Shown piece after piece: positions 11,029 to 64,000 of a stretch of DNA of 64,000 bases. The position numbers were made by a program, and so were the translations under genes. Position 1 is the stretch's first letter. Every line of letters starts with the position of its first letter. This stretch comes from Schmidtea nova (taxonomy: Eukaryota). The notes beneath the pieces were generated by a model that saw nothing but the letters and a program-made list of their open reading frames with translations, was not told the origin of the DNA and made no database searches. The DNA lies in NCBI GenBank assembly GCA_044892505.1, contig CM097882.1:253394001-253458000 (forward strand), given 5' to 3'.

Positions 11029-12324
11029 TTATAATATATTATAATAAACTATACTTATAAAATATAATAATAATAAAAAAAATAAAAATTAATATTAATA
11101 ATAAATAATATTAATTTTTGGCATTTTTATTAGGCAAAATTATTATTAGGCACCACATAATATTGTATCAACTGCTATATCAACTACATATACCAGTAAG
11201 CATTCATCTAGAATTTAAAACACTAAATAACATTTTAAATAAGTAAATTTTTGGGTAAATTTTTGAATTGGGAAAAAAAGATTTTTTGATTAATTGTCTG
11301 AAAAAGGGGAAAACAGAATTTATGAAGAAAAATATGAATTATTTATTTAACTTTAAAAACTTTATAATAAGTAGCATTAAATGAGTAAAAATTCTTTAAA
11401 AGTTTTATTCAAAGAAATTTTCGGATTATAAAATAACCCTTTACAATAAAATAGGATTCATAGCTGATGTTTTAATCTATCCGACTGAATATCTCTCTTT
11501 TTTTTTCTTTTGCAGATAACTTGAGATTTTACAAGATTTGAAACAAACATAAAACAAGCACGATTTTAACTACTTTGATCATTTTTATTGTATAATTCAT
11601 TATTAAAATTTCTGTTCCAGGAGTTTAAATATCGTAAGTTTATTTTTAAATAGATCATTGTAACTATTTCGTCAGGTAAATGTCATCTTTTATTTGTCAT
11701 TGAATTTTACATATTTAAGCCAAGATTTTTTTAAAACATTTTATTTATCTTTATTTTTATTTAAAATTAAAATAAAATAATATAAAAATAATATAAAAAT
11801 AATATTCTATAGTCTTAGAAATATTAATATGAAAATTATTGAATCAAAAATAGAGCTCAAAGGTGAAACCAGAAGATAATTTTGATTCTTTATATTTATT
11901 TTTTTAGTATTTTTAAATCATAAAGTCGCTAAATTTCAAATGTTGTTTCAAGTACATGGACCAAACCATCATCAATAAGATTCATTTCGGAAAGTTATAG
12001 GATGCCGAATCCATTTGGCATTTGCAGAATACACCCACTAAATTAAGTTTTTACAAAAAAAATTTTAAAAAAGAGAAAGTCTGATTTCAAAAACTGTGGA
12101 TTATGATTTTGCCTTTTTTATTCACTTTTCCCACTGATACTGAAATTGTTGATGATAGCTGAAAAATGGAATAAATTGAAATACAACTTGACCCTATGTT
12201 GTTATTTCAGAATTCTTACCAATGTCGGCTTACAAAAGTGTTTGTTTTTTTCATTTACGGTTATACTGTCAGAATTAACTTTTATTCTTTTTTTAATTCA
12301 ATAATTTTCATATTAATAATTGTA

Positions 12325-12460
12325 TGACTATATCAAAATATTTTGGCTGTTAGGAATTCACACACAGCGTTTATCAAGTGTGTATAATACACACTTTAAT
12401 AGAGGCTGTGCCGAAACATCGTGTATCTAACAACCAAAAAAAATATTTTTAATCTAGTCT
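12325..12460. repeat. Decayed head-to-head foldback of the Penelope 3' end/hammerhead family
   Basis: acagcgtttatcaagtgtgtat-aat-acacactttaatagaggctgtgccgaaac is homologous to the 17867-18062 palindrome. Confidence 0.7.
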
Positions 12461-13974
12461 TAGAAATAGCTTGAACCATGATGTTTGGTGCAAAACTCGT
12501 TTGACATGCCAGATCTAGCCGAGAAGTAATAAGTTACTGGAAGTATTACTGGAAACAAATATTAAATTTAAAGTAAAAGACAAAAATAAATCTTTACAAA
12601 ACATATTGCCATATTGACCCGAATATACAAAAAAATCATTGAAAATTGATAATCATCCTATATTTCTGTATTTTGCTAAGATCTGTTGTTTGATTGTATC
12701 ATTTAATCATTTTAAGAACTAATATGAAGAAAGTAAATCAAAAGTGATGCTCTCAAGTGCGGATGAATATGATGTTAAAATACTACAATGAATTTTTGAG
12801 TCATGTTTTTGTATATTTTTCATCACTTGTAGTCTTAACTAAAAGTTTAAAAGGATTTTTTAGTGTTTTTTTTAATAATAAGTCGTCTTACAATCGGGGT
12901 ATTAAATTTTTTACCAATTTTTTGCATAATCATTGGCAATCATCATATTTTTGGTGAAAAATATGAAAGAATAAATAATGTTATAAAGTTATTTGCATTA
13001 GAAGACGTATCAATGTTTGGTAATGTACTAAAAGAAATTTGTTGATCCCATTCGAGTCACCTGTAAAATATGTGTCGGGATGGTCAAGGATATATGATGT
13101 GCTTCAGTGTGTGGGTGTGTATGTGTGTCAGCTGATTTAATAATACAAACAATGAATAATTTTACGAAATTTTAATAGCGAACAACTTTTTGAAAATTAT
13201 TTTGTTTAACAATAAAAAATCTTTTTAAAAAAAAATTTGATTCTTGGCAAAAAATCTATTTCAATTTCTTTTTGTTCAATGACTTTTATTTATTTCTCCA
13301 TCTTTTTTAGATTTCACCAATTAAATATTTAACTAAATAAATCTGATTTTATTTAATTTCCTCCGCTGTTGAAGATAAAAACTCAAAAGATAATAAACAA
13401 TAATATTTTTGTAGTTATATTATCATATGGAAAATTTATGATTATAATAAATTTATATTACACGTTTTGAATTGGTAGAAATTAATAATTATTTTGAAAT
13501 AAAATTAAAATGTATTTGTGAAAACGGAAATTCGTGTAATCCATGTCTCACTAATTTCAATAAACATCATCAAGTTACATGCTGCGTCAGGTTTCCTTTC
13601 AAAATTTTATTTTTTGAAAAATTTTAATTTTGAAAAAAATTAATAAAATTATATTTTGTTTATTAATTGAAACAAAGTTTTAATTTATTTAATCTAATTT
13701 CAAATATTTAGACACATTTTTCTTAAAGCTAGAAGTCTTATTGGGAGGGGTCACATAATTTCATATAAATCAATATCTCACCTTTGTAACATTACGTTTT
13801 CTCGAATTTTACGGAAAGTAAAATAAGTGCAAAATTTTAATTATTAATTAAATCCAACTTAAAATATTTATTTTATTATTCTATTAATATATGAATTTTA
13901 AATTTTAAAAATAAAATTTATAATATTAATATCAATAATTTCTTTAAATAAGTACACAATATTTCGGCGAGTTC

Positions 13975-14400
13975 TTTGCTCTGTTCTCGTTTATATTTTC
14001 AAACGTCATGGGTGAAATGCCACATACATTGGAAAAGACTGCCCGTCTTCTCTGTATTCGAGTTTCAGAGCGGAGTCAATTAATGGGATTTAGCGTTGTT
14101 TTCAGTCATATCGTTGTTTAAGAATATGTGAGTGTGAGAGTTTTGAGTCCGTGTGTTTGCCTCATTTTTTGCGGTTTAAGTAAATTAACTGATGTGGTTG
14201 TTGATGATGTTTATTTTCTTTTTTTTATTTGAGTTCTATACTCGTTTAATTTTTCAAATGTCATGGGCGTAATGCCACATACTTTGGACAAGACTGACCG
14301 TCTTTTCTGTACTCGAGTTTTAGAGCATTTTCAATTGGGGATCATGGATTTCGTTTTCAATCATTCTGTTGTTTATAAATATGAAAATATTTATAATATA
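13975..14400 (+). pseudogene. Two tandem decayed copies of a Penelope GIY-YIG segment (~255-bp period)
   Basis: 13986-14070 and 14241-14330 both align by eye to 16215-16300 (LVYRFPCNGCNATYIGET), with frameshifts. Confidence 0.75.
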
Positions 14401-14601
14401 TTCTTAAAAAAATATTTTTTTGTATAAAAATAAAAGAATATTATATTTTTAAGATTAATTTATTTAAATTAAAAATTTTTGATCGATTTAAATTTTTTGA
14501 CTATAATAGAATTTAAAATATATATTTTATTTTAAAAATTAATACTAATTTGTTCGAAAAAATCGATTTATTTGATTTATATTTTAATGTAAGACTGGGT
14601 A

Positions 14602-14642
14602 GCACCTGATGAAGAGAATTAAGTTCTCGAAATATATTGTGC
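14602..14642 (+). ncRNA. Minimal type I hammerhead ribozyme motif (canonical C3-G8 core, one extra nt after A9)
   Basis: gcac CTGATGA a gagaa-ttaag-ttctc GAAA tatat t gtgc: stem I gcac/gtgc, 5-bp stem II, palindromic ATATAT stem III. Confidence 0.85.
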
Positions 14643-14878
14643 AAAATATATATTNNNNNNNNNNNNNNNNNNNNNNNNNNNNNNNNNNNNNNNNNNNNNN
14701 NNNNNNNNNNNNNNNNNNNNNNNNNNNNNNNNNNNNNNNNNNNNNNNNNNNNNNNNNNNNNNNNNNNNNNNNNNNNNNNNNNNNNNNNNNNNNNNNNNNN
14801 NNNNNNNNNNNNNNNNNNNNNNNNNNNNNNNNNNNNNNNNNNNNNNNNNNNNNNNNNNNNNNNNNNNNNNNNNNNNNA

Positions 14879-16507
14879 TTAATATCTTTACTTCATGACT
14901 TAATTTTAAATAAGCATATAGATAAGGATATTGTTAATTCACTTTGGCCTCGGGGATCCCAACCTGCTAAATTATATGGTCTTCCAAAAGTACATAAAGA
15001 TAATTTACCTATGAGACCTGTATTGTCAATGATTCAAACTTCACAATATAAGGTTGCGAAGTTTTTAGATAGTTTGTTGAAACCCTTGATTAAAACTGAA
15101 TATGAATGTAAAGATAGCTTTGAGTTTGCCTCTTTTATAGTAAATTTAAATAAGAGTGGGAATGATGACTTTATGGTTTCGTTTGATGTGGTTAGCCTTT
15201 TTACAAATGTTCCTTTAATAGAAACGATTGATATTTGTTGCAATTTATGGAGTGTTAACACTTCACTTCATAATATTATTGATGTTGTTGCTTTTCGTAA
15301 ACTTTTGACATTTGATACTTCTAATGTCCATTTTATCTTTGATAATCAATGGTATAAGCAAATTGGTGGTGTTGCCATGGGCTCACCTTTAGCTTCTACA
15401 CTGGCATCTATTTTTATGTCAAGTTTAGAAAATAAATTTATAAATTGTAGTGTGAATAAACCCTTAGTATATAAACGTTATGTTGATGATATTTTTCTTG
15501 TATTTAAGAATAAAGAACATGTTGAGCCTTTTTTGTATTATATGAATGATTTGCATAAAAATATTAAATTTACTTTTGAAGAAGAAATTAATTCTAAAAT
15601 ATCATTTCTTGATTTGTTGATTGAAAAGAAAGAGAAACATTTTGAAACCGAAATTTATAGGAAAATAACAGATACTGGTTTGTATACATCACCGGAAAGC
15701 TTTTGTGATTTTAAATATAAAAGAAATTTGATAAGGGGATTGGTTTATCGTTCTTGGACATTGACGTCAACTTATTGTAAATCTATAAATAGTATTGATA
15801 AATTACTTAAATTACTACAGAATAATGGATATTCAAAATGTTTCTTGCAACGAATGGTGAGTGAAACTGTTGATAAGTGTATTAATAAGTTGAATGTGAT
15901 TGATGAAAAAATTTCTCCTGGTGTTGATCCGTTTAATACCTCTGATAGTGCTCCTTTGATTGAAACAGGTGATGTTGTTATTGGAATGAATGATGGTGTT
16001 GATTGCAATAATAATAATGAAATAAATAAAAGTAACCTGAATGATTGCATTGGTTCTGTTATAGTTTTACCGTTTTCTGAAGGATTTGTAAATTTAAAAA
16101 AATCTATTATAAAATATATTGGAAATACTAATGTTAAAATAATTTCTAAGTCTTGCAAAGTTCGGGACATGTTCAGTAATAAATCTGTGACGCCATTTGG
16201 TCTGTGTTCTGATCTCGTATATCGTTTTCCTTGTAATGGGTGTAATGCCACATACATTGGAGAGACTGTCCGTCATCTCTGTACACGAGTTCAAGAACAT
16301 GCCAGAAAGAGCGGAAAGATTAACATTATTGAGCATAATAAGACTTGCAAGAAGAGCATTGATATTTCTAATTTCAAAATACTTTCTAGGGGTTTTAAAA
16401 ATTATTATGAACGTGTGAATTGTGAGGCTTTGATGATAAAATCATTTAATCCTAAAATAAATATACAAAATGCAATATCTACATGCATTTTGAGAGTGTT
16501 TAATTAA
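14879..16507 (+). CDS. Penelope-like reverse transcriptase plus GIY-YIG endonuclease (uninterrupted after the gap)
   Basis: KLYGLPKVHK, FDVVSLFTNVP, GVAMGSPLAS, RYVDDIF, thumb NNGYS, LVYRFPCNGCNATYIGET, C-terminal PKINIQ. Confidence 0.95.
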   Translation, partial: LISLLHDLILNKHIDKDIVNSLWPRGSQPAKLYGLPKVHKDNLPMRPVLSMIQTSQYKVAKFLDSLLKPLIKTEYECKDSFEFASFIVNLNKSGNDDFMVSFDVVSLFTNVPLIETIDICCNLWSVNTSLHNIIDVVAFRKLLTFDTSNVHFIFDNQWYKQIGGVAMGSPLASTLASIFMSSLENKFINCSVNKPLVYKRYVDDIFLVFKNKEHVEPFLYYMNDLHKNIKFTFEEEINSKISFLDLLIEKKEKHFETEIYRKITDTGLYTSPESFCDFKYKRNLIRGLVYRSWTLTSTYCKSINSIDKLLKLLQNNGYSKCFLQRMVSETVDKCINKLNVIDEKISPGVDPFNTSDSAPLIETGDVVIGMNDGVDCNNNNEINKSNLNDCIGSVIVLPFSEGFVNLKKSIIKYIGNTNVKIISKSCKVRDMFSNKSVTPFGLCSDLVYRFPCNGCNATYIGETVRHLCTRVQEHARKSGKINIIEHNKTCKKSIDISNFKILSRGFKNYYERVNCEALMIKSFNPKINIQNAISTCILRVFN

Positions 16508-16611
16508 TTTTATTAGGGTAAATAAAAGTTTTATTGGATTATCACGTGTAATTATGTAATCACTATTAAGCGTATAATTAAGATCAATTTTTATTTTATT
16601 GAGATTGTGGA

Positions 16612-16653
16612 AAGCCTGATGATGACAGCTAAGCTGTTGAAATATATTGCATT
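16612..16653 (+). ncRNA. Minimal hammerhead motif in the Penelope 3' UTR
   Basis: aagc CTGATGA t gacagc-taa-gctgtt GAAA tatat t gcatt; stem I is weak. Confidence 0.65.
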
Positions 16654-17866
16654 AATATATTTANNNNNNNNNNNNNNNNNNNNNNNNNNNNNNNNNNNNN
16701 NNNNNNNNNNNNNNNNNNNNNNNNNNNNNNNNNNNNNNNNNNNNNNNNNNNNNNNNNNNNNNNNNNNNNNNNNNNNNNNNNNNNNNNNNNNNNNNNNNNN
16801 NNNNNNNNNNNNNNNNNNNNCATTATCATCATTTACCATGGATATTAACAAACATTTTAGCGTAAATAAAAGAATAATATTTTAAAATAATATTTACAGC
16901 ATTCCAAAGCAAACTCTTTGTCGTCCCAGGGGTCTTGAAATCTCCAATTCTCAACTACCATTTCGTCACAAAAAAATTAAATTTAAAGTAATTTATCCTC
17001 AATAAAATTTCAGTTGAATTTTTAATCACAAAATCTAATCAAAAATTTTATTAGTTGTTTAACTTTCCAGAAAAATTAAAAAACGAAGTTTTCTCATTTA
17101 ATTAATGGTTTTAAAATAATATTGAATTTATAAAATAGCAAATATTTCAATTTTATTTTAATTTTGACATAAGATTCTTCTAATAAATAGTAAATGTTTG
17201 ACGGTCACATAAGATTCATTCTTGAGTCGGACCCGCCTTGGGTATCAACTCTTATTTTCAAAGAATTGACAATTCAACTTTTGGATTTTGTGCTTTAACT
17301 TAAAAAATCTTCAAAAAAATCTTCTTCCCACATTTTAAAACATAATTTTTTAATTAATTTTTTAAAAGAAGCTAACTTTCTATAATAAAATATCAAAATA
17401 CATGTGAAATAAAAACTAGCCCACAAAAATGAATTTAAAATCTTTTGTCAACCGATGTTCATTTAGTTTTGGTTTTAATTTTTTTGTTTCTTTTTTTATA
17501 CAGGTGGTGTGCAAAAGTTAATATATAGTTATGAATTATACAGAGTTTTTGTTATTTAGAATATTTTTAATATTATTTTCCGGTTCTAGGACAAAATCGT
17601 ACGGACAAAATCGTACNNNNNNNNNNNNNNNNNNNNNNNNNNNNNNNNNNNNNNNNNNNNNNNNNNNNNNNNNNNNNNNNNNNNNNNNNNNNNNNNNNNN
17701 NNNNNNNNNNNNNNNNNNNNNNNNNNNNNNNNNNNNNNNNNNNNNNNNNNNNNNNNNNNNNNNNNNNNNNNNNNNNNNNNNNNNNNNNNNNNNNNNNNNN
17801 NNNNNNNNNNNNNNNNNNNNNNNNNNNNNNNNNNNNNNNNNNNNNNNNNNNNNNNNNNNNNNNNNN

Positions 17867-18062
17867 CATTATTAATATCAATAATTCCCATAATGGATGA
17901 CTATAGATCAAAATTTCTATAAACAAGTACACAATATTTCGGCACAGCCTTTATCAAGTGTGTATACACACTTGATAAAGGATGTGCCGAAATATTGTGT
18001 ACTTGATTATAGAAATTTTAATCTATAGTCTTACCATTATGGGAATTATTGATATTAATAAT
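17867..18062. mobile_element. ~195-bp loopless foldback made of two inverted Penelope 3' ends, one hammerhead per strand
   Basis: Near-perfect palindrome centred between 17964 and 17965; arms are homologous to the 3' tail at 52566-52660. Confidence 0.85.
17929..17961 (-). ncRNA. Hammerhead motif, U3-A8 core variant (intact copy)
   Basis: Minus strand reads acac TTGATAA a ggc-tgt-gcc GAAA tat t gtgt. Confidence 0.7.
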
Positions 18063-18311
18063 AATAATAATTATTATTATTATTATTTCTATTATTATTA
18101 TTATTATAATTAAATAAATCAATAAATCTTTTAGTTTAGATCGAAGGTTAGATCACATGTTAAAATACTTAAAAATATTTTTTATTCTTATGTAACTATT
18201 TTGTCCTATACCATTTTGTCCGGCCACCTATTTTTCCCATATAAATCACGGATGTTAGTTTTACCAACGACCAACGAAAAGGGATAATCAAACAATATTT
18301 GGATACAGACA

Positions 18312-18509: not shown

Positions 18510-18941
18510 AAATTATAAAAAAGCAGTCAATTTGAGATAAAATTTTCCGCAGACTTTTTAATTGTTTGATGTATTATATATAGATGTGAAAATGTTGTCA
18601 TTTTTTTATACGGGTAATTTATCAATATTTTTTTTGAAAAAGTTCACAAATTTTCATCAAAGCCTCTTTTGTGGGGATGTCACTCTTGGACTTGAAAAAT
18701 TGATCTATTGTCTGTATAAAAAATGAAAATTTATGAAAAAGAAACGAAAATATCACGGTTAAAAATAAGAGATCTTCAGTGTAGAAAGAGAAATCTGTAA
18801 TTTCCACGCATATTATCCCCTAGCAACAGGAACCAATAAATTTCACCGCTGTTAGAAAAAAAAATTTTAAAAAAATTTAAAAAATTATTTGCTAGTTTGA
18901 AAAGAAATGTGAAAATTATTACAACAAATATTGATACTTAC

Positions 18942-21584
18942 ATTTGGAAAATATTTATTCTGGGGGACTTGAATATTTTCATCTTCCGGAATGAAATTTT
19001 CTCCTTTACGATTCGTTCTTTCTTCTTTGTAATGGCATATAGAAATCAAATCCGGAAGAAATTCAAGCCAGCCTTTCATGTGTCGAACATAAACAACAAA
19101 ACATATACAAATCATGACCAAAAACAGAATCAAAACTAATGCGAACACAAAAATGCTTTCTCTGTCTGAAAAAATGTTTCCGTTTCCGTCTTGGAACTCT
19201 GATTTTGATTCATCGTGACTGTTTCTTTTATCGTTTAAATATATGGGTATGTCTTGAACTTTAATCTGGATCTGTCTCTCTGAGGACAAAACCGGAGTTC
19301 CATCGTCCTCTACTTTGATGATAATAAAATGATCACCAATGTCTGATATTCCCATTTGTCTGTGAATTCTAATTTCTCCGTTGTTTGGATCAATGTTAAA
19401 GAGATTATTTGAGTTTGAGTTAATACTGAAATATAATTTCCCATTGCCTCGAGGCAAATTGTCCTTATCATTAGCAGATGCCGTTAATACTAGATAGCCT
19501 GGCTGTTGACGATAAGGTACTTTGGGAATCGTCTCATTTCCCGGTCTTGGGAAAATGAAAATAGGTGGATTGTCATTGATGTCTAACACTGTGACATTCA
19601 CTGTCGCACTCGCTGTATGGGATCTATATCCCGCTCCGTCAGTGGCGATGATCACTAACTCATAAAAGTCTAATTCCTCTCGATCCAACGATTCAGTTGT
19701 CATCAACCAAAACCGATTTTTTTCACTCGTTATCGAAAATGGAGACCTTCGATTGTTCGATTTAACAAATGAAATACCGAGTCGAATTGATCCCTTTTCA
19801 TCGGGATCTGACACTTCAATTTGGCCCAATCTATAAATTGGGGCTTCATTTTCAGTGACAGAAAATCTAAAGGTCGACTGTGCAAATTGTGGCGCATTGT
19901 CATTTTCATCGTCAATGAGAATTTGAATAGATTTCGTAGAGAATTGTTTCGGAGTCCCCGAATCCGATACAGTAATGGAGAGATCCAATCTTGTTAAAGG
20001 TGGACTTGTAGCTTCTCTGTCAATCTTTTGAAGGGTTCGAATAATTCCTGTTAAAGAATCTATCGAAAGGTAAGCTGAAACGAGATTTTGAGAGTCCGTT
20101 ATAGCATATGTTAACTTTCCGTTCAAGCCATCATCTTTGTCGGTGGCTTCAACTTTTGTCACAATCGTTCCCGGAGGTTTGTTTTCTGATACGTGAAATA
20201 TTGAGGGGGAATTTATTTCTGGCTTATTGTCATTTTTATCGAGAATAATAACAGGAATGATAGCATCTGCAGTTAATGTCGGTGTGCCTTGATCTTTACA
20301 GACAATAGATAGGGAATATTTTGAATTGGTTTCCCGATCGAGCTGTTGCAAAGTGTGAATTTTGTATTGGTCTGGACTGGTTTGACGAAGATCAAAAAGC
20401 TCATGATGATTATCCAGTTGACATTGGACTTTTCCCGCAATTCCTATATCTTTGTCTCTGACAGTCACGAAGCAAACAAACGCCGGGGCACTTTCATATT
20501 CGGAAATGGAAGCATGCTGCCAATTGCCTAAATAATCCACAAATATCATCGGTTTTTCATCATTTATGTTGACAACGTTTACCGTCAATGTAGCCGTTGC
20601 TGTATTGACTCCGGGTATTCTATTTCTAGCCGTTATTATCAATTTATATTCCTGGTCTTTCTCATAATCGAGAGGTGAGATCATATAAACTGATCCCGAT
20701 AGTTCGTCCACGCGAAACATCCCTGAGTCGAGCTTGTAAAATATTTCTGCGTTTTCTCCAATATCTCGATCAGTTGCTTTGACCTGTATAATTGAATCGC
20801 TTGTCATTTGACTTTCTTTCACTTGGACGTTATACCGTGTGTTTTCAAATATCGGCGGGTTATCATTGACATCAAGCACGAGGACTTGCACAACAAGGAC
20901 ACCTGTCAACGGAGGATCACCACCATCGACAGCAGCAATTGTCAAACTATACTGATCCGTTTCTTCCCGATCAAGCCGGTTTTTCAATCTCAAATACACC
21001 GACATTTTCTTGTCAATAAATTGCGTCTCCAAACTAAAAACCGACAAATCGCTTTTTGAAATGAATTTGTAAGATTTTACGGAATATTTATCGGAGTCCT
21101 TGTCAATTGCCAACGGCAGCTGAAAGGTAGTGGAAACCGGACAGGATTCAGAAATCGAAAGATTATAAATCGAATATTCAAAGTTCGGTTTGTGATCGTT
21201 TCGATCGTCAATGACAATTAAAAATTTCCCAATTATTGGATCTATGACTTTGCTTGAAATTTGAGCGGTTGTCATTGCAACCGAGACTGAAATCGAGCAG
21301 ATCATGTCATTTTTGCAGCACAGCTCGATTTCGGAACACAAAGAATCGCGGTCGATTTTTCTTTTAGCGAAAAGTTTTCCATAGTTACCATCAAGATGGA
21401 GATAATCGATAAACGACCCCCCTGACAATAGCCGATATAATACTTTTCCTTCGGGTTTCTCATTGAGAAATAGAGATGTAGATGCCAAATCGGTGATAAG
21501 TGTACCAGGTTGAATTTCGTCATCAATTTTTATCTCTTCAGCTTTTAATAATTTAAACAATAAAAACAAAACAACAATTATCAT
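18942..21584 (-). CDS. Protocadherin (7 extracellular cadherin repeats, delta1-like architecture); large exon encoding signal peptide, EC1-7, TM and start of the tail
   Basis: Repeated DRE/DYE and DxNDNxPxF motifs, Cys-rich EC1 (DRDSLC..CC..C), hydrophobic TM (IFVFALVLILFLVMICICFVVYV). First ATG at 21584 (the ORF track starts at TTG 21599); acceptor at 21606; donor AAT|GTAAGT at 18941. Confidence 0.95.
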
Positions 21585-22437
21585 TTCCAATATTTTCAAT
21601 ATTATCTACAACAATTAACAATGATTAATTAATTATTTTATTAATTAATTTAAAANNNNNNNNNNNNNNNNNNNNNNNNNNNNNNNNNNNNNNNNNNNNN
21701 NNNNNNNNNNNNNNNNNNNNNNNNNNNNNNNNNNNNNNNNNNNNNNNNNNNNNNNNNNNNNNNNNNNNNNNNNNNNNNNNNNNNNNNNNNNNNNNNNNNN
21801 NNNNNNNNNNNNNNNNNNNNNNNNNNNNNNNNNNNNNNNNNNNNNNNNNNNNNNNNNNNNNNNNNNNNNNNNNNNNNNNNNNNNNNNTAAAAATAATTAT
21901 TATTATAATTATTTATAATTATTATTATAATTATAATAATAAATATACTATATATATATAACTGTTTATAAAGGTTTACCCATTATTTGTTAACGAAATG
22001 ATTAAAATAAGAAAACCAACAAATTATTTTCCATTTATTGGCATCACTATTATCAATTATTTACCAAAATTCAAAAACCGGGTTTAATATCTTCTAAAAC
22101 AAACGATGTTACTCCCTATTGCTCCCTTATACTAATTACCATCAGATAAATCTTTTGTATACCTAATGAACCTATATAACAACAATGCTAAACTTATCTC
22201 GCTCCATCTCCCCCCATAGATAGTTGAATTGTTCTACAACCCATATATAGGAAAATATATTGCATTAATCATGTAATTAATAGAAAGGATAATAAATATA
22301 TTGTTTACGATTAATTGTATGTCAATGTAAAATAGAAACATAATAAAAATATGCATAAAATTTGACTGGCAATTTAAAAATTAACAATTTTTAACTCAAA
22401 TTGGATATCAGAACTTTAGCATTATTATTATTATTAT

Positions 22438-26573: not shown

Positions 26574-29116
<2,543 letters not shown>

Positions 29117-29812: not shown

Positions 29813-30115
29813 ATTAATTAGACTAATTGCTAAGGAAAGTAATATATGTAAAATTAAATTTTTAATTTACATAAATAAACAATTGTAAATTATTATCTGT
29901 AAATAATATAAATTCATTCATTTAAAAATTGTGTGAATATAAATTATATTATATAATTTATATAATATAAATTATATAATATAATTTATATTCACACAAT
30001 TTTTAAATGAATGAATTTATATTATTTACAAATAATAATTTACAATTGTTTATTTATGTAAATTAAAAATTTAATTTTACATATATTAGTTACCTTAGCA
30101 ATTAGACTAATTAAT
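29813..30115. repeat. ~300-bp AT-rich near-perfect palindrome inside the hAT 5' region
   Basis: The left arm (attaattagactaattgctaagg...gtgtgaatataaattatatt) is mirrored by the right arm; centre near 29964. Confidence 0.9.
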
Positions 30116-38771: not shown

Positions 38772-39127
38772 TCATTCTCTCAAGAAAAGATTTAGAGTAA
38801 CCATTTTAAATTTCAACTTAACTAGAGCGTCGATAATTTTTACATAATAAACAAATGTAGAAGATATTGACCCAGCACGAAACAATGATCCTCTCACCAT
38901 ATTCCTATTATATTTAGATTCACAAAAACTCTCAGGCTTAGAATATAGACCAGTATCAGTCGACTTCCTATATATTTCAGTGTTATAATATTTTGCCTTG
39001 TGTTGAATGAGTAAATCTAAAAACGGAATAGATGGCATTCTTTCTTCGTCAAAAATGAATTTAATGTTTCTTTGTAAACCATTTATGTAATTCAAAAAAC
39101 CCTCACATGCTCATGACTTTCAAAAGC

Positions 39128-39179
<52 letters not shown>

Positions 39180-39541
39180 AACATAACGTTTGTACACAGT
39201 TGGTTTAATAAGTTAGTATGATGAGATTTTCCTTTCCAAACTAGATATAAAAATTGTAGACATGGCGCTAAGACAGAACTTATTGAGATACCAATCACTT
39301 ATTTGTACCATTCACTCTTAAAAAGAAAATATAACATATGACGTTGTAAATTCAAGTAATTTACGAAAAGCTTTTTCATCCACATTCTTATGTTCAAACT
39401 CATTTTCATTCCACATTTTACAACATAAATCAATCGTTTCCAATAATGAAACATTAGTAAAAGACTGCGAATATCAAAAGAAGCCATAATTTTATCTTCA
39501 TTATTAGGTTTCAATTGTGCAAATAAAAAAGCAAATTCCAA
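38772..39541 (-). pseudogene. Decayed Penelope-like RT, related to the 14.9-16.5 kb element
   Basis: MASFDIRSLL, IPFLDLLI, IYRKSTDTGLYSKPESFCESKY vs IYRKITDTGLYTSPESFCDFKY; interrupted by (TA)n. Confidence 0.85.
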
Positions 39542-41015
39542 GCTATCTTTACATTANNNNNNNNNNNNNNNNNNNNNNNNNNNNNNNNNNNNNNNNNNNN
39601 NNNNNNNNNNNNNNNNNNNNNNNNNNNNNNNNNNNNNNNNNNNNNNNNNNNNNNNNNNNNNNNNNNNNNNNNNNNNNNNNNNNNNNNNNNNNNNNNNNNN
39701 NNNNNNNNNNNNNNNNNNNNNNNNNNNNNNNNNNNNNNNNNNNNNNNNNNNNNNNNNNNNNNNNNNNNNNNNNNNNNNNNNNNNNNNNNNNNNNNNNNNN
39801 NNNNNNNNNNNNNNAATAAAAGTTATCAAAAGTCAGTAAATATTTTCAATTATTCCAGGCCACATATGCTTAACATTGAAATTCTAAATGAATTTATGGA
39901 AAAGCAAAGCGATGAAATTATTAATATAAAATGGAATAAAATTAAATTAAAAATTTCATATAAATAAGAAATAATAATATTTTAAATATAAAATGGGAAT
40001 ATTTTAATTGTATTCCCATAGCTTAACTCTACAAATTTAAATTGAATTTTAATTTTTAACATTCTTTTATATTTTTAAAATTCCAAGTCGAATTTTTAAT
40101 TATCATCACTTTTAAAAGATTATTTTCATTACAAAAATTAAAACACTATTTTTAAATATATTTAACAAAAATTATCCGCACAGTGCTGCGAATTCTGATT
40201 GGTACATTGTTTCCTGTCTAAAAAAATTCGATATTTTGACAAACTCCAAAAATACTCTCACTAGTTCAAACCATATTTCGATAATTAATGAATTAATTTT
40301 CTATTTTTATTCATTACAAAAGAAAACGTCTAATAAAACTAAAAGGAGCTCTTGATACTTAAGTCAAAAATAATCGACTGAAAACAATCTCAAAATTTTC
40401 AAGATGAATGAAATTTGTTTTAATTGAAAAGTGCTGTCGCCATTAGATAATATACAAATTGATATTTTCAAGTAATATAAAGTGGATTTCTATTGAAAGG
40501 CGGAATAAATAGACTTACTGTTGTCGCCAAACTCTTGGTTGCGATGGTTCGTGGAATACCCGTCAGAGAGATAGGTGTATTGTATTTACATTTGCACATG
40601 GTCAGATATACGATAAATCGGTTTATGAAAATTTTGTTTAAAAAGTCAATCGATTGTGAAAATTCTTACACAATTGATTTTACCAGTCATAGAAAATTTT
40701 GCATTGATTACTTTTCAATTGAATTTGTTCCTGGAAGCTGAATTTTGATTTATTCCACGGGCTCCCATAAATCATTGGCCGTACTTACTGATGAGACAGT
40801 TAAATTGTCAAAGAAATTTTTTAATGCTTTTTTTGAGTTGAGCATAAAAAATCTTTAAATTTTTTTTAAATTGTACTTTTTTTGGATAATTATTTTTGAT
40901 TTCATATCTGGTAAATTTGTTGAGATTCATAAGGCTTTTTAAAGTTTATTTGTTTTTATTTATTTTCTTTCCGTCTCAGCTATAGATCAGTGTTTAACAT
41001 AATAATAGTCTACAA

Positions 41016-43290: not shown

Positions 43291-44777
43291 AATAGTAAAT
43301 GTTATCAAGAATTTCTATAGTCTCATCAGAACATTTTACAGTTGTCACTTAAATTATGTATTTAGGTAAATTATAAATTTATACGTTATGCCTATGTAAA
43401 CATCACCTCTGGTATCGAAGCCCACAATTCAAGCCCATTTTAAAATACAAAATATTCCAATTTAAGGCTTACATACGAAAAATATTGATAGTTTTTGAAA
43501 TAAGTCACTAAGAAATACTTAAATGGAATTTAGCGTACAATATGACCAGAAGGAAATAACATACAAAAAATTGGAAATTAATTCATTCAGATAGCCCAAT
43601 CAACAAGTTTCAAAAATGTCAATGAAGAGAATGTTAGAAGGTTGACGGTTTTTAAGTGGGAGATTTTGTAAACGTTTTTAGGAACGAAGACAAAGAAATT
43701 GAAGATGAAGTTAAAGAAGTTATTGTCGAAGTGTTAACAATCAAAAATTTAAAATGGTTAATAAATGAAATTGGAAATGTTTTAAATTTTCGAATGAAAA
43801 TGATCCTGATAAATAAAGAATTGTTAGTGTTAAATACAATAAATCCATATAGGCAATTGTTAAATTACAGAAGAAAATGCGTAAACAATCAAAATTATCT
43901 TTTGATTTCACCTTTGATCTCTTTGTTTATATCAATAATTTTCATAATTGTAAGAATATAGATCAAAACTTTTATACAATTATGGAAGTTATTGATATAA
44001 ACAATCAACTAGTAGGAAGAAATGTGGACGGTGGAATAAAGGAAGTTACATAATCAATGAGTTATAACCTATAAAAATCTCCTTTTTTACACCCCTAATT
44101 TTTACACACATGCACGATAACGTTATCAAAATTTTCTTTAAACTTTTTTTAAATATTTTCGTAATCGATGACACAATATAATATTTTATTTAAGGTCAAT
44201 TTAAGGACAAAGGTCAAGGTCAAACTTTTTAAGGTCAACTTATTAAAAAACTTCAAAAATTCAAAAAACTTTAAATTTTCAGAAACTTTCAAAAACTTTA
44301 AAAACAAAAAATTTTGAAAAACAAAAAATTTCAAAAAATTCAAAAACTGATTGTCAACATTTATTAAAAAATACATTAAGCGATTCTAGCACTGTTAATT
44401 TTCCAAATCAGAGATACTTCTTCTTTTATAGCCTTGAATCGATACATCAACATCAATATTGATTGTAACAACATCTTCTTTTTAAAGCTGACCAATTAAG
44501 TTGGAATATTGCGAAGTCAAGAGCCTTACTAGATATGAGAACTTGAATGGTAATTCATTTACTAAGAGAAACATTTGATAACTGTCAAACATTTGAACCG
44601 CTCTGAAATAGTTTTTCAAGATACAACTGAAATCACAATTGGTTATGTTTTTCTTGATTTTACTAAACAATGTAGTATTGATACTTTTAATAAAAAATAA
44701 GCCATGGTTTCTAAACAAAGTTAAAATTTGTTTTGAAATTGATCATGAAACTTAAACCATGTGCCAAACATTATAGT

Positions 44778-51027: not shown

Positions 51028-51206
51028 CTGAATNNNNNNNNNNNNNNNNNNNNNNNNNNNNNNNNNNNNNNNNNNNNNNNNNNNNNNNNNNNNNNNNNNN
51101 NNNNNNNNNNNNNNNNNNNNNNNNNNNNNNNNNNNNNNNNNNNNNNNNNNNNNNNNNNNNNNNNNNNNNNNNTGACTATAGATCAAATTTTTTTTTATAA
51201 ACAATA

Positions 51207-51239
51207 ACACAATATTTCGGCACAGCCTTTATCAAGTGT
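51207..51239 (-). ncRNA. Hammerhead motif, U3-A8 variant (intact)
   Basis: Reverse complement is identical to 52568-52600. Confidence 0.7.
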
Positions 51240-51729
51240 GTATTTCTATCGTTATATTTACTTAATCCTAAATAGTAGCCTCAATTATTTTTTTAATATT
51301 TTATAATGATTTTATTGGATGAAAAAATTTATTTTAATTTTTTTGTGCGAATTGAATGTTGATGGACGGTTTGTATTTTTTTATGAAAAAAGTCTCGGAA
51401 GCTAATCTTTGTAATGAATTTTTGAATCCCTCTTGTAGAATCTGGCATTTTGTTTCTTCTATAGATGGAGTTGTTTTATGTACTTTCTCCCAGTGTTCGT
51501 AATAATTACTGGTTTTGATTTTAGTGTGTTCATTAAGTCGGGTGCGAAAAGTTCTATGTGTTTCTCCTATGTAAGTAGCGTCACATTTTTGGCAAGAAAG
51601 TTTATATACTATATTTTTGGAAAAGCAGAAGCATCGGGTTGTGGAACGGCAAAGACATTTAAAAGACATTACAAAAGGCCAAGATACACTAAATGCAAAC
51701 ACCGAGCTATATTCTAAAAGTTTACATAG

Positions 51730-52473
51730 CGGTCATATCCTCCATGGAAAAGCCACGTTCCACTTCAACGCAAAATCGCATTACTAATAGGAGAAAGAAA
51801 AAGAGCCATAAGAAACTGTTCAGACGCAAACAAAATACAAGAAACATTAGAAAACTTCAAAATACGATTCCTCCAAAATGGATACCCTGAAGACTTTGTA
51901 AAGAAACACTTCCTTAACGAACCATACCACAATAAACGCAACAATAGAAAACGCCAGAAACACAATAACAATAACAAACACATAACATATCTAAGATTAC
52001 CTTTCCTAAATGACACTACAGCCAACAAAATCACCAACATTTTTAATCAAACAGATTTGCCTATCCACATCCGTCCAACGTTCATAACCTCCGCACCGTT
52101 AAAATCACAACTCCGAAAGCCACCAATTTACAACATCTCCAAACATAAATGTCTTTGCCGTTCCACAACCCAATGCTTCTGCTTTTCCAAAAATATAGTA
52201 TATAAACTTTCTTGCCAAAAATGTGACGCAACTTACATAGGAGAAACACATAGAACTTTTCGCACCCGACTTAATGAACACACTAAAATCAAAACCAGTA
52301 ATTATTACGAACACTGGGAGAAAGTACATAAAACAACTCCATCTATAGAAGAAACAAAATGCCAGATTCTACAAGAGGGATTCAAAAATTCATTACAAAG
52401 ATTAGCTTCCGAGACTTTTTTCATAAAAAAATACAAACCGTCCATCAACATTCAATTCGCACAAAAAAATTAA
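51730..52473 (+). CDS. Penelope RT thumb, linker and GIY-YIG endonuclease (open 247 codons, no 5' end)
   Basis: SHVPLQRKIALL..RAIRNCS, QNGYPE, LRLPFL, IVYKLSCQKCDATYIGET, KPSINIQ. The frame is open upstream of the track's TTG start at 52057. Confidence 0.9.
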   Translation, partial: RSYPPWKSHVPLQRKIALLIGERKRAIRNCSDANKIQETLENFKIRFLQNGYPEDFVKKHFLNEPYHNKRNNRKRQKHNNNNKHITYLRLPFLNDTTANKITNIFNQTDLPIHIRPTFITSAPLKSQLRKPPIYNISKHKCLCRSTTQCFCFSKNIVYKLSCQKCDATYIGETHRTFRTRLNEHTKIKTSNYYEHWEKVHKTTPSIEETKCQILQEGFKNSLQRLASETFFIKKYKPSINIQFAQKN

Positions 52474-52567
52474 AATAAATTTTTTCATCCAATAAAATCA
52501 TTATAAAATATTAAAAAAATAATTAAGGCTACTATTTAGGATTAAGTAAATATAACGATAGAAATAC

Positions 52568-52600
52568 ACACTTGATAAAGGCTGTGCCGAAATATTGTGT
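52568..52600 (+). ncRNA. Hammerhead motif, U3-A8 variant, ~95 nt after the Penelope stop codon
   Basis: acac TTGATAA a ggc-tgt-gcc GAAA tat t gtgt. Confidence 0.72.
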
Positions 52601-53210
52601 TATTGTTTATAAAAAAAAATTTGATCTATAGTCATTATGAGAATTATTGATAATAATAATAAAAAAAGATCAAANNNNNNNNNNNNNNNNNNNNNNNNNN
52701 NNNNNNNNNNNNNNNNNNNNNNNNNNNNNNNNNNNNNNNNNNNNNNNNNNNNNNNNNNNNNNNNNNNNNNNNNNNNNNNNNNNNNNNNNNNNNNNNNNNN
52801 NNNNNNNNNNNNNNNNNNNNNNNNNNNNNNNNNNNNNNNNNNNNNNNNNNNNNNNNNNNNNNNNNNNNNNNNNNNNNNNNNNNNNNNAAGAATCAAATGA
52901 AAAAAAATCCATGGGAAAGTATCAGGATCTTTAAAAGATCAAAAACACTTGGCGAAGAAAGGCTAATAATAACAAAACAATAAAAATATTTTGTATTTTT
53001 ATTTACTTTACATATTTACAATAATTTTGACCAAATTCAAACGACGTCATCGAAAATGATGTTAAAAATTTAAAAATATTAAGATTTGTCTTCAAGATGA
53101 TATAAAAATATATAAAAAATATACATAAAATATACATAAAATTTATAAAAAATTTATAAAAATTATTAAAAATATAAAAATAAAAAATATAAATATAAAA
53201 AATATATATA

Positions 53211-54824: not shown

Positions 54825-55774
54825 TTATAATTATACAAATAAAATATTTAAAAATTATTCTTTTGAAATATTATAAATTTAACCAAAATATTTTTTTATA
54901 ATTAATATTATAAATTAGCTATTAATAATATCTCTGACACCTACGCAGAATTGCTGATACATTTAACTGAAAACAAATATATAAATATGAGAATGAATAA
55001 CGCACTTTATCAAATTACTAATATACTTGAATATCTCTGTGTTAATTAATGCGAACATTTAATGTTTTCTTATTGATGTCATTACAATTTCCATAACTTG
55101 TTCTTTTCGAAATTTCATTGAATTTAAAGGAGGAAAATGAAATCCAATTTAACAAGGTATTGGCACCAAAGTAAAAATATGCTTAGTAAATGTCAATAAA
55201 AAATCTAAAAATAGTCTACTGATGATACATTAGTCGATTGGTAGCAATAATAGATTATCGATTGATATATTAAGAAAACCGATAAATATGATGCGAACAA
55301 GAGCATTATAAAAGAAAAGAAATGTTGTTATCGACAACATATACTCTAATTAGCATTATCTCTACAACAGCAATCTCCCACAATAAATATATCTCGGACT
55401 TGATTAACCAGTTAGCAATAGGAATTAATAGATAAGAATAACTCGTCNNNNNNNNNNNNNNNNNNNNNNNNNNNNNNNNNNNNNNNNNNNNNNNNNNNNN
55501 NNNNNNNNNNNNNNNNNNNNNNNNNNNNNNNNNNNNNNNNNNNNNNNNNNNNNNNNNNNNNNNNNNNNNNNNNNNNNNNNNNNNNNNNNNNNNNNNNNNT
55601 TCTAACTATATCTAATCTCACCGGAAATAAAATAAATCCATCAAATCAAAAACGACAAAATAATAATATTTCAAAATGATAGTGATAGGAGAAATATAAC
55701 GAATTGTGCCTAATTTGTATCATTATGAATACTCTTATCATAATTATCTTTTTGTTTCACCTTTGATCTTTTTT

Positions 55775-55948
55775 AATATTTATATCAATAATTCCCATAA
55801 TGGATGACTATAGATCAAAATTTCTTTAAATAAGTACACAATATTTCGGCATAGCCTTTATCAATTGTGTATTACACATTTGATAAAGTCTGTGCCGAAA
55901 TATTGTGTTATTGTTTATAAAAAAAATTTGATCTATAGTCATTATGAG
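55775..55948. mobile_element. Foldback of two inverted Penelope 3' ends, hammerhead on each strand (slightly decayed)
   Basis: acacaatatttcggcatagcctttatcaattgtgt-att-acacatttgataaagtctgtgccgaaatattgtgt. Confidence 0.85.
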
Positions 55949-59881: not shown

Positions 59882-62800
59882 TTATAAACTATTTTCTTCG
59901 TAAATTGTTTTCATTTTTCTTTCATCACCATAGTACCCATATGCATGACTTTTATTCTTTTCAATCCAAATTCTTTTATCATCGGCATTTGTTAAAGCAA
60001 CTTTCGACTGCTGGAAACTAAATAATTGATGATTTTGTGTACCAATTCGACATTGTGGTACTATAAACCTTTTGCTGTTATTATAACAATCCAGGTACGA
60101 CTGATGATTCAGTTTAGTATCCTTCAATGTTATACTCTTAGCTTTAATGCACTCTTTTTCCCCTAACAAACTGTAACATTTTGGTCTTAAAAAGACCCAT
60201 TCTTTATATCCATCGCCTTTACTTTCATCCTTGAACTTTCCGATAACTGAATCCAATTTTCTGGAAAAGAGTGGATGTTCCGAAGGATAATTAGACGTAT
60301 CCAAGAGATTATCATTAACCATTGCCAGTAATAATGTATCTAATTTAACATTTTTACATTCCAAGAAAAAACTATCGGTATCTCCAGCAACAATATTTAT
60401 TTCGCAACCGAATTGTGCTCGATATTTAGCTAACTCCAGATATTGTAACTGATACATCCTAAGTTTAGATAAATCCAGTACAGTTTGACCAATGTAACTG
60501 GGTCTATCCAAACAAATAGAGTCTTTATTTAGTAAGGCAGCTATTAAATCATCATCAATCTTGATACTTCTTTGAAAAGTTGGCTTGGAAGCATATGTTA
60601 TCATTTTCTGTTCAGTATTACATAATCTCAAATTCATTCTTTTCTTCAAATTTTCGACTGTTTTTCCGTACAGACTATTATTAAAAAGCTTATAATAATT
60701 CTTATCGAGACTATTATTCGACTCAGCTCTTAACTTAGTATTTGCATCAATATACTTCTTGAAAATAGCAGCCTGTTTAAATTTAACAGCTCTATGTATA
60801 TTGATTACTTTTACACCTAATGATAAAAACATTTGAAGTAACCGCCAATGAATTACATAGTTGAACTTTGGATAATGTGTCAACATTAACTTTTCTACTT
60901 TAGATCCTGGAGCACACATCTTTTCTGCTGCTACAGGTAGATCATCCAAGAAATCATGAATTTCTGAAGAGATCTCTAAATCAACTTCTACGGTATAGCC
61001 ATACGGAAGCGTTTCTAATTCTAAATTCTTGCATTCGTCTAAGATTTTATCTAGATCTGAATGAATCCAACTAAAGTCTCCACACGGCAAGCTTTGACTT
61101 AAAGCCCATCCATAAAGGTTATTGATATCTATGTACAATAGCTCTGTAGTTGCATCTGATTTAACATAATGTTTGTTCACAAATGTCAAACCACCACGGA
61201 TCCCCCCTTCGAAAAAATTATACATTTCCATTTCTCGTATCAGTTCAATTGGTTCATCTAAAGTCATAAGTGATGATGCCCAAGACATTCCAGGGATTCC
61301 ATAAAAGTTCAATGGTTCCAATCGATTATGAGCTATAGATTTGGCTCGAAACTGTTGAAAGAAATCAGCCAATAGAAACACGTCTAGTTTCAAATAAATT
61401 AACTGATAATCCATCAATGTTTCACAACGTGTTTCTTTCCATATATGTTGGGCTTTTTCATATTCTTCTTTTGAAACCCCATCCCAGATTGGGGGTAATT
61501 CTTTTGTTGTTTCCAGAACTTCTTGACTAGTGGCAAAGTTATATGGAAATATTCCTTTTGATTCTACTATAATCCCATTAAATTCTGATTTTGTAATGGG
61601 TAAGTGGTTCAATGTTTTGATGGCTTTAGCTAAGGAGTCATTGACAAACTGATAAGAATCAATAAATTTAATTGAAATTCCACCGATGTATGCAATAAGC
61701 GATAAAAACTTTTCAGTTGTAAGAGGAATACAGCTTAAATTCCAATCCGGAAAACGATTTAACCCATGCTTAAGAATATGGTGTAAATCATAACCCTTCA
61801 AATTGTGAAACACAACGGGCAATATTTCATTAATTTTCCTTGAAATATTACATTTATTACATGCGGAACCCATATATTTTCCTGTAAAATAATCGTGATC
61901 TCTGACCTTTTCTATTATCTGTTTCATGCACAAGTAACAAATTGTTGAATTTTCAAATGATTGGTTTTCATCTGGCGAAAGTGGTGACATTGGCTTTTCC
62001 CCTTCTTTGATGTAATATGGAAGAACAATTTCTGTTGCTATAATCTTTACTTTCTTCAAAAATTGATAAACACAATCATCACCTACAAATTGATAATAAC
62101 TTGATATTCCGGTAAAATTGTTGATTAATAAGAGTCCGCCTGAAATTGGTAAATGTTTTTGAAAATAAGTGTCATCTTTGGGTAAAATCGACTCAAAATC
62201 TGCATAAATAACAAATGGAGGTGTTATTATCTTTGACCAGTTTTTGAATTCCAAATTTTTATCTATTGGCATAGTATATAAAGTTGTACCCAATTGATTT
62301 TTCTTGCACAATGCTTGATGCTTTTCAAAAGCCTTTTTCTTTCTGAATCCATTCAAACAATTTTTACACCACTTGCAACAGATCTGAACTCTACAATTTA
62401 CGCTTTTATGGCAATTCATCAAACGATCGATGTTAATTACTGCAGTATAATGAAAGTGATCTTTATTTTCTAACAATAATAAGTAAATCTGCTTCCCATC
62501 TATGACTTTTGATCGATGAATTATATCCAAATACGGGTGTTTCATTACAACATTATCCATATCATATAACTGATTATCATTATAAGTTAACACATTGATT
62601 GCCAAACCAGGATTTTTTCGTTCAAAGGTTGGGATATCACACAGTTTCATAGGCATATCACCATAATCAAATACTAGTTCTGACAGATATGGTAAATATT
62701 TTGTGGGTCTATCTCTATGTTCTTTGATTTCATCATATTTCAATATTGATAAAATACTATAGATGAAACACAAATCATCTGAATTCTGAACATTGACAAT

Positions 62801-63514: not shown

Positions 63515-64000
63515 AGTATTGTGACAGTTAATACTGTGGTTCGATTCATTACAATATTTTGGATAAAGAGTACCTTAAAAAAATAATAATAATAATTAAA
63601 AATTTGCACAATAAATGTCAAGTATTTTAATATTAAAATTAATATCATTATACAATAATTAATATAAATTAATTAATAATTACAATAATAAAAATTTAAT
63701 TAAATAATTTAAATATTATGAAAAATAATATTAATTAATTTCAATTATTATATTCTTAATTAGAATTGTTTTAATAATTAGTTTCACTCAAAGATGTAAA
63801 ATTTAAATTATTTACAAGTAATATAAAAATATTAATTTAATATAATAATTTTCATATCGAATATTTTATTTACTATGATAGAAAATAAGTTATTTATTAA
63901 AAATTAATTTATAAAAACTTTAATTACTAGAAAATTATTAAAAATAAAGCAATAAGTAATATTATTCTATATTCAAATTAATTTTATATTCAAATTAATT

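Follow-up and report, generated by a model that had tools for sequence, protein, structure and literature searches.

The window, a 64,000-nucleotide stretch of Schmidtea nova, is eukaryotic DNA with a GC content of 28% and 14 runs of N. At 17.9 kb it contains a palindrome of 195 nt (positions 17868–18062), which is 94.9% identical to its own reverse complement over 196 columns (blastn) and whose RNA is predicted to fold as a single rod (−128.8 kcal/mol, z = −27.4; 0 of 200 shuffled sequences equally stable). A preliminary description had reported a palindrome of about 200 bp lacking any coding sequence, and both points are confirmed, no open reading frame being present. When the whole window was scanned for palindromes with 40-nt arms of at least 85% identity, the only others found were at 55.9 kb, at 29.96 kb and in three (TA)n runs. 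The palindrome at 29.96 kb (29813–30115) is unrelated: it is 303 nt long, AT-rich and MITE-like, with 151-nt arms (97%) and TTAATTA at both ends, and has no hammerhead motif. Three further coding features were observed, all on the minus strand. A single-exon protocadherin-like ORF with six cadherin domains (18885–21605) lies 800 nt from the 17.9 kb palindrome, a Pogo/Tigger-type transposase (CENP-B_N, HTH_Tnp_Tc5, DDE_1) occupies two frames at 27305–28906, and an intact ORF of 1230 aa (59882–63574), without a match in Pfam or PHROGs, encodes what we take from its motifs to be a protein-primed family B DNA polymerase of the Polinton type. The 17.9 kb locus is made up as follows.

17868–18062, no strand: fold-back of two Penelope-type element (PLE) 3′ ends, head to head; the left end meets an N run.
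17929–17961, minus strand: putative minimal type I hammerhead motif with U3–A8 core, extra A after position 9, 3-bp stem II, AUAU helix III and 4-bp stem I (motif scan; features as in Cervera 2014).
17958–17971, no strand: centre, with 14 nt between the cores; both arms stop 7–8 nt upstream of the core, where microhomology is 2 nt at most (comparison with the parent at 52560–52571).
17968–18000, plus strand: minimal type I hammerhead motif, stem II of only 2 bp, predicted cut after 17996 (motif scan and folding).
18001–18062, plus strand: right arm downstream of the hammerhead, to the family's short, tail-less end; the left arms at 55.9 and 43.9 kb and the copies at 11.8 and 52.6 kb extend 30–40 nt further.
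18063–18112, no strand: (AAT/ATT)n microsatellite flank, the likely target, given the ATT cleavage preference reported by Frangieh 2024 (PMC11167929).

The centre, at 17964/17965, lies 3 nt upstream of the 4-bp stem I, and the arms are 87% identical to the PLE 3′ end at 52564–52660, which bears out the claim that two Penelope 3′ ends are fused head to head close to this stem. The right end is the short, tail-less one. An N run (17617–17866) conceals the left end and makes a TSD invisible there, so the status of this copy was inferred from its sister copies. The (AAT/ATT)n flank agrees with an AT-rich or microsatellite target, a weak sign at the GC content of the window.

One hammerhead motif is located on each strand, with cores that start at 17972 (plus) and 17957 (minus) in the motif scan. 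The motifs consist of a 4-bp stem I, the U3–A8 core, an extra A, a short stem II, GAAA, an AUAU helix III and UU before the cut. At the motif level they contain all the elements of the PLE minimal type I hammerhead, namely the core, GAAA, UH, an extra base after position 9, G10.1–C11.1 and a palindromic helix III. Since Rfam detects no hammerhead in the palindrome, the call rests on this anatomy as compared with Cervera 2014; the only Rfam matches, sub-threshold ones to microRNA hairpins and sRNAs, were rejected as hairpin matches. The minimal hammerheads of metazoan PLEs described there combine the U3–A8 variant, an extra base between positions 9 and 10.1, G10.1–C11.1, a palindromic 15.2–16.2 and a 4-bp helix I, and all of these are shared by the present motifs, whereas helix II has 2–3 bp at 17.9 kb as against 7–8 bp in Schistosoma (PMC4209133). 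According to the same source, the type with an AUAU helix III is inactive as a monomer, and minimal motifs are weak as dimers (Cervera 2014, PMC4209133).

Other members of the family and its parent element are distributed along the window as follows.

11792–11892, plus strand: single 5′-truncated family end with tail, without hammerhead (sequence comparison).
12280–12468, no strand: the third fold-back, diverged and from a sister subfamily, with both hammerhead motifs broken and without a recognisable TSD.
13924–13968, minus strand: internally deleted family end, cut within hammerhead stem II and adjoining a second PLE family (sequence comparison).
43882–44008, no strand: same-family fold-back that turns downstream of the hammerhead and so lacks a ribozyme; 11-nt TSD, tail confined to the left end.
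51173–52674, no strand: parent-type PLE insertion, a 5′-truncated direct copy plus an inverted 5′-truncated copy (489-nt arms, 99%), with N at both ends.
51207–51239, minus strand: hammerhead motif in the inverted arm of the 51–52 kb insertion (motif scan).
51730–52473, plus strand: C-terminal 247 aa of the PLE protein, comprising the end of the RT region and the GIY-YIG nuclease (homology).
52568–52600, plus strand: hammerhead motif of the parent pLTR, with the 3′ end and tail beyond it (motif scan).
55737–55948, no strand: second double-hammerhead fold-back, with a tail on the left arm and arms like different subfamilies; the right end is under N and a TSD is invisible.

In the parent-type insertion the direct copy retains about 910 nt upstream of the core and the inverted copy 426 nt. 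Its protein fragment is 45% identical to an 877-aa RT protein (P0004) and 34–36% identical to P0035 and P0029, both of which contain RVT_1 and GIY-YIG; Pfam gave no match on the fragment itself, and protein searches for a named parent returned nothing useful. The linker is of the CxCX5C type, as in Hydra, yet it has the CxxC that is absent in Hydra. A second PLE family is found at 13973–16663, with an RT ORF (RVT_1) that has a GIY-YIG-like end, a C3–G8 hammerhead motif at 14606 and, near 16617, another related to it; it is preceded by two decayed partial repeats, and its two pLTRs are only 74% alike. Another PLE reverse transcriptase fragment, 46% identical to the 14.9 kb protein, is on the minus strand at 38814–39553. 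At least 7 of the 14 N runs (14655, 16664, 17617, 39557, 51034, 52675 and 55949) adjoin PLE ends or hammerheads, and most PLE boundaries and TSDs in the window are therefore hidden.

The three double-hammerhead copies first reported, at 12.4, 17.9 and 55.9 kb, were all recovered, the 55.9 kb copy matching at 89.6% and the 12.4 kb copy at 84% over 63 nt. A ribozyme motif on each strand, claimed for this arrangement, holds at the motif level at 17.9 kb only; both hammerheads carry a helix-breaking change at 55.9 kb, and both motifs are broken at 12.4 kb. The core-to-core spacers are close but not identical (14 nt at 17.9 kb, 15 nt at 55.9 kb and 17 nt at 12.4 kb). Altogether, this one family has five head-to-head insertions in 64 kb, whose centres are widely spread, the extremes lying downstream of the ribozyme and hundreds of bases upstream of it, three of the five being situated 7–9 nt upstream of the core. 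At 43.9 kb, where the 30–40 nt extension is restricted to the left end, the fold-back is flanked by an 11-nt direct repeat (43882–43892 and 43998–44008), matched by chance in 4 of 1586 comparable window pairs, although part of the repeat may be derived from the element. The 55.9 kb arms differ from each other by 8 substitutions and 2 gaps; relative to the 52.6 kb parent the right arm has 1 substitution and 1 gap, and relative to its counterpart at 17.9 kb the left arm has 3 substitutions and no gaps. This resemblance to different subfamilies points to two templates or to later conversion.

Contigs of runs X1, X2, X3 and X6 (three of organism A, one of organism C) were aligned to the parent, X1 possibly deriving from the source of the window, and the ends and joints given here come from 24 of 2106 loose-end rows and 15 of 166 joints. 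Among these rows, upstream loose ends cluster at 52561–52563, 9–11 nt upstream of the core (152, 239 and 127 contigs in X1 at the three positions; 84 and 127 in X2, and 80 and 58 in X3, within the same interval; 21 and 35 in X6 at 52561–52562). The letters upstream of these ends agree at 0.41–0.43 in X1, close to the random-flank baseline of 0.38–0.39, so that most of the ends have no common upstream sequence, and we read them as numerous copies of one arm each, whose preferred 5′ end is near the point where the fold-backs turn. Diverged sister families that have only the ribozyme in common could make a minority contribution to the cluster. A splice or spliced-leader junction at 52561–52563, considered on account of the AG before 52562, is unsupported, the observed agreement being below the 0.49 expected if 30% of the ends shared their upstream sequence. 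Overall, the 5′ ends of the family accumulate in a zone 7–11 nt before the ribozyme core, away from the cut site.

The opposite-strand joints among the 15 of 166 considered are scattered (52154/52355, 52480/52536 and 52568/52603). The last of these, found in three runs, has a depth of 1134 in X1, about 20 times the typical value (26–63 for the listed pieces), and unites one arm that has the whole hammerhead with another that begins just past stem I; it could be the product of self-priming on the stem I of the cDNA, or a multiplied unit. Summed contig depth, which is no copy number, rises 3–5 fold over the hammerhead and tail. Fold-back centres are uncountable from these contigs, because perfect centres likely break short-read contigs. 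At 52600, among the rows considered, 465 X1 contigs part from the parent beyond the hammerhead and continue as sequence resembling the arms at 12.4 kb, and the 12.4 kb type is therefore an abundant sister subfamily. A related family is also present in organism C.

A pattern for two facing hammerheads, which permitted spacers of 4–34 nt and demanded most of one motif, matched at least 119 loci in metagenome contigs. Among the 119 loci listed, 85 are fold-backs, 76 of them closed on both sides and 62 distinct, with a median arm length of 86 nt from the core. Excluded from the TSD test were the 34 listed loci below the arm threshold (chance matches, contig ends and deleted arms), as well as 9 open-ended loci, 14 duplicates and 3 with too little flank; one merged pair (L059/L105) probably represents two loci. 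A TSD score of at least 10 was obtained for 30 of the 59 listed fold-backs tested, as compared with 3 of 400 mismatched pairs. These duplications are 11–18 nt long in the listed loci, and in 30 of the 30 loci that have one it is located 22–55 nt further out on one arm, in a search that allowed symmetric ends. Consistent with this asymmetry, the tail marker of the family was found on exactly one arm in 23 of the 26 listed loci that are fully seen, on neither arm in 3 and on both in none. An exception may be L093, in which the tail-start sequence occurs on both arms and one side is cut off. A near-identical tail accompanies different hammerheads and arms across families (L030, L079, L094, L106, L015, L057, L064, L080, L092 and L095), which suggests that the tail may be a conserved protein-recognition element.

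The spacers of the listed metagenome fold-backs fill the entire permitted range, and a universal stop 3–4 nt before stem I is ruled out by this spread in other families. Centres were compared for 54 listed loci in 16 hand-grouped families: 10 of the 88 within-family pairs, from 4 of the 16 families, have a like centre at different flanks, and the other 78 are unlike. In the largest group with a shared centre, 4 loci can be oriented by their asymmetric central base, and one of these has its tail on the opposite side from the rest. Of the 62 distinct listed loci, 24 retain two intact cores, 27 retain one and 11 have none intact. In several listed families (e.g., F10 and F15) the two arms of one locus have locus-specific bases in common. 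A tblastn search with the two PLE proteins of the window as reference matched in 1 of the 119 listed loci (more than 500 nt was available on both sides in 38 of the 62), and the metagenome loci are therefore tied to PLEs only by their anatomy.

The 17.9, 55.9 and 51–52 kb copies all adjoin N runs, as would be expected if the palindromes were assembly or amplification artefacts produced by hairpin read-through at contig ends. Such an origin is highly improbable. About 5% of positions distinguish the two 17.9 kb arms, one difference being an indel variant that recurs in 53 X1 contigs; the copies at 12.4 and 43.9 kb both lie in the interior and have diverged, and the second has a TSD; and the 62 distinct listed loci have the same anatomy in unrelated assemblies. 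Even less credible, and largely refuted, is the reading of the palindromes as MITEs or foldback DNA transposons that captured a PLE end. They are indeed short, non-coding and almost entirely inverted repeat, and DDE transposase remnants are present in the window, but their ends are made asymmetric by the tail, at 43.9 kb just as in every TSD-bearing locus listed, the TSDs are long and variable, and the termini are the PLE's own 3′ ends. Hairpins of this kind are nevertheless easily mis-annotated as MITEs or as microRNA precursors.

The preliminary description had proposed a discrete, non-autonomous ambisense unit, which would be transcribed and re-inserted whole by the PLE protein and whose transcript, with ribozymes on both strands, would fold either as a rod or as an active ribozyme. 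The switch itself is opposed by the predicted energetics. For the full palindrome RNA the predicted energy needed to force the hammerhead helices is 49.9 and 49.0 kcal/mol, as compared with 2.7 and 0.6 kcal/mol for the half units, and the pair probabilities of these helices in the full RNA are predicted to be below 1e-12. Whichever strand of a head-to-head pair is transcribed, the antisense arm emerges before the ribozyme, and as the RNA grows beyond the centre, 44 of the first 48 bases are predicted to pair with that arm. There is no same-strand partner hammerhead for a dimer fold, the window contains neither multimers nor a tandem array over the fold-back loci, and in the predicted co-fold of two halves the copies pair through the AUAU region and not as a complete double-hammerhead fold. 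Of the two states proposed, the long double-stranded rod is thus the one predicted, and a viroid-like switch operating in both polarities is unlikely. An active hammerhead might still be reached if protein assists the fold or if transcription diverges from the centre; a PLE hammerhead was reported to cut only with the protein present, and insertion in vitro was independent of it (Frangieh 2024, PMC11167929).

Copying of the whole unit, considered apart from the switch, would account for the presence in 64 kb of three copies whose centres agree to within 3 nt, for the centres that recur in 4 of the 16 listed families and for the multi-copy joint 52568/52603, and pLTRs are reported to suffice for mobilisation in trans (Arkhipova 2013, PMC3846280). 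However, centres proved largely heterogeneous, the outcome named beforehand as evidence against a unit: at 43.9 kb the centre is downstream of the hammerhead, at 51–52 kb the arms reach 426 and about 910 nt upstream, and in other genomes the unlike pairs among the listed loci greatly outnumber the like ones. Centres are still non-random in the window family, and a minority recur at different loci elsewhere. The flipping tail in the family that most shares its centre, the arms of the window copies, which do not sort cleanly into left and right lineages, the decay of the hammerheads in the copies and the predicted rod, which would form first in transcription and block the ribozyme by about 50 kcal/mol, also argue against a unit, and we regard its propagation as a whole as distinctly unlikely. 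What stands of the proposed mobilisation by the Penelope RT is that Penelope machinery most likely made the palindrome.

The main rival for the origin of the second arm is self-priming during a de novo PLE insertion, in which the 3′ end of the cDNA folds back and is copied, and resolution by a nuclease trims one tail. Such a step was proposed for junction palindromes (Arkhipova 2013, PMC3846280; the idea also in Craig 2021, PMC8557442), and it would suit the locus-specific bases common to both arms in listed families such as F10 and F15, the perfectly palindromic centre at 17.9 kb, and the joint at 52568/52603, where the antisense stem I of the cDNA could fold back. Conversely, the zero-base loop at 17.9 kb is not foldable as a hairpin tip, the differences between the 55.9 kb arms favour two templates or later conversion, and the short end corresponds to a measured second RT start site (Frangieh 2024, PMC11167929). 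We consider self-priming unlikely.

The structure is best explained, and probably so, as two hammerhead-bearing PLE 3′ ends joined head to head, likely in one insertion event into AT-rich DNA. Among the known PLE inverted insertions it is best classed as the shortest form, one that lacks an ORF, and it was likely assembled de novo, with both nicked strands serving as primers. The GIY-YIG nuclease of the element would nick both strands 10–18 nt apart, and each free 3′ end would prime reverse transcription, one cDNA starting from the short start site of the family and the other from a start 30–40 nt downstream, which adds the tail. Both cDNAs would stop 7–9 nt upstream of the ribozyme core, at the preferred 5′ end of the family, which may be the start of the template RNA. 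The two cDNA ends would then be joined with little or no microhomology and filled in. Priming on both strands in this manner should give exactly a head-to-head pair with a TSD, and the strict pairing of a long with a short end would imply coupled use of the two RT start sites. Each fold-back would be mostly made anew and not copied as a unit, with the two ribozymes as passengers. Since the read-through rod is predicted to block the hammerhead, the likely effect, if any, would be dsRNA against the parent family.

Several published observations are relevant to this mechanism. In experiments with a purified PLE protein, both strands were cleaved and extended, ATT was preferred, and synthesis started at two sites, which bound the tail (Frangieh 2024, PMC11167929). 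An inverted 5′-truncated copy with a one-ended tail is a standard PLE structure (Craig 2021, PMC8557442), and de novo PLE insertions in Chlamydomonas have a median length of 128 bp (PMC9977147). Against priming on both strands, the near-equal centres of the three double-hammerhead copies would also be expected from a copied unit, and the recurring centres (10 of 88 listed pairs) and the high-depth joint 52568/52603 weigh in the same direction. Evidence on the number of templates is mixed, with arms sharing locus-specific bases in the metagenome loci versus arms of different subfamilies at 55.9 kb.

A broader scenario, which we put forward as a speculation with a low chance of being correct in full, would be that PLEs produce a short template RNA whose start is about 10 nt upstream of the hammerhead and not at the cut site, that a dimeric PLE complex uses both RT starts on opposite strands, and that ORF-less double-hammerhead hairpins are a main insertion product across animals. 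Some would spread as units while the hairpin RNA silences the parent, which would make them a self-limiting, previously unnamed class of PLE-derived fold-backs. As a system the fold-back is ordinary, and its value is as a record of PLE insertion, bearing on the formation of inverted pLTRs and on the role of the hammerhead (PMC8557442; PMC11167929). Two regularities can be tested in the existing in vitro system: the pairing of long and short ends, seen in all 30 TSD-bearing loci listed, and the 5′ ends 7–11 nt upstream of the core. Such hairpins could also feed small-RNA silencing.

The preliminary description had left open whether the arrangement was known, and it has already been described: inverted pLTRs with junction palindromes, a 31-bp tail, TSDs of 8–10 bp and solo pLTRs (Arkhipova 2013, PMC3846280), and dual minimal hammerheads on opposite strands (Cervera 2014, PMC4209133). 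In the latter the two motifs are about 100–700 bp apart, as compared with a core-to-core gap of 14 nt at 17.9 kb. With the inverted-pLTR insertions of EN+ PLEs the fold-back has in common the head-to-head inverted 3′ end, the palindrome at the junction and AT-rich targets, and the one-ended 30–40 bp tail and variable TSD of these elements are matched by the 43.9 kb sister copy and the related listed loci (PMC3846280; PMC8557442). The inverted copies presented in the available text of these two papers adjoin a unit with an ORF or cargo, whereas the 17.9 kb arms stop just upstream of the hammerhead and are ORF-less. A literature search, whose scope excluded most subscription papers and all supplements, found no paper devoted to ORF-less double-hammerhead fold-backs and none on 5′ ends clustering upstream of the ribozyme; the available portions of PMC8969392, PMC2997562 and PMC2377424 contain nothing decisive on the fold-back question.

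Non-LTR retrozymes resemble the fold-back in being short, non-coding and PLE-derived, in having a type I hammerhead and in their probable mobilisation by PLEs; their hammerheads are tandem and on the same strand, and they release circular RNAs (PMC7229834; 10.64898/2026.07.22.740005). They are arranged head to tail, whereas the 17.9 kb locus is head to head with one motif per strand (PMC7229834). No tandem units occur at the fold-back loci, and the motifs are on opposite strands, which places these loci outside the retrozymes. Viroids and viroid-like circles have ribozymes in both polarities, masked by a rod-like fold. The 17.9 kb palindrome is similar to them in having a hammerhead motif per strand (at the motif level) and a masking rod, but its rod is a perfect antisense duplex, its motifs are mirror copies of one ribozyme and not two evolved ones, and any circular or RNA-to-RNA replicating form of it would be hypothetical. 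In the twin priming of LINE-1 both nicked strands prime cDNA, the products are joined and a TSD flanks the insertion, and the inverted part is a non-overlapping upstream segment. In the fold-back, by contrast, one and the same segment is represented in both arms, which would start at two neighbouring sites.
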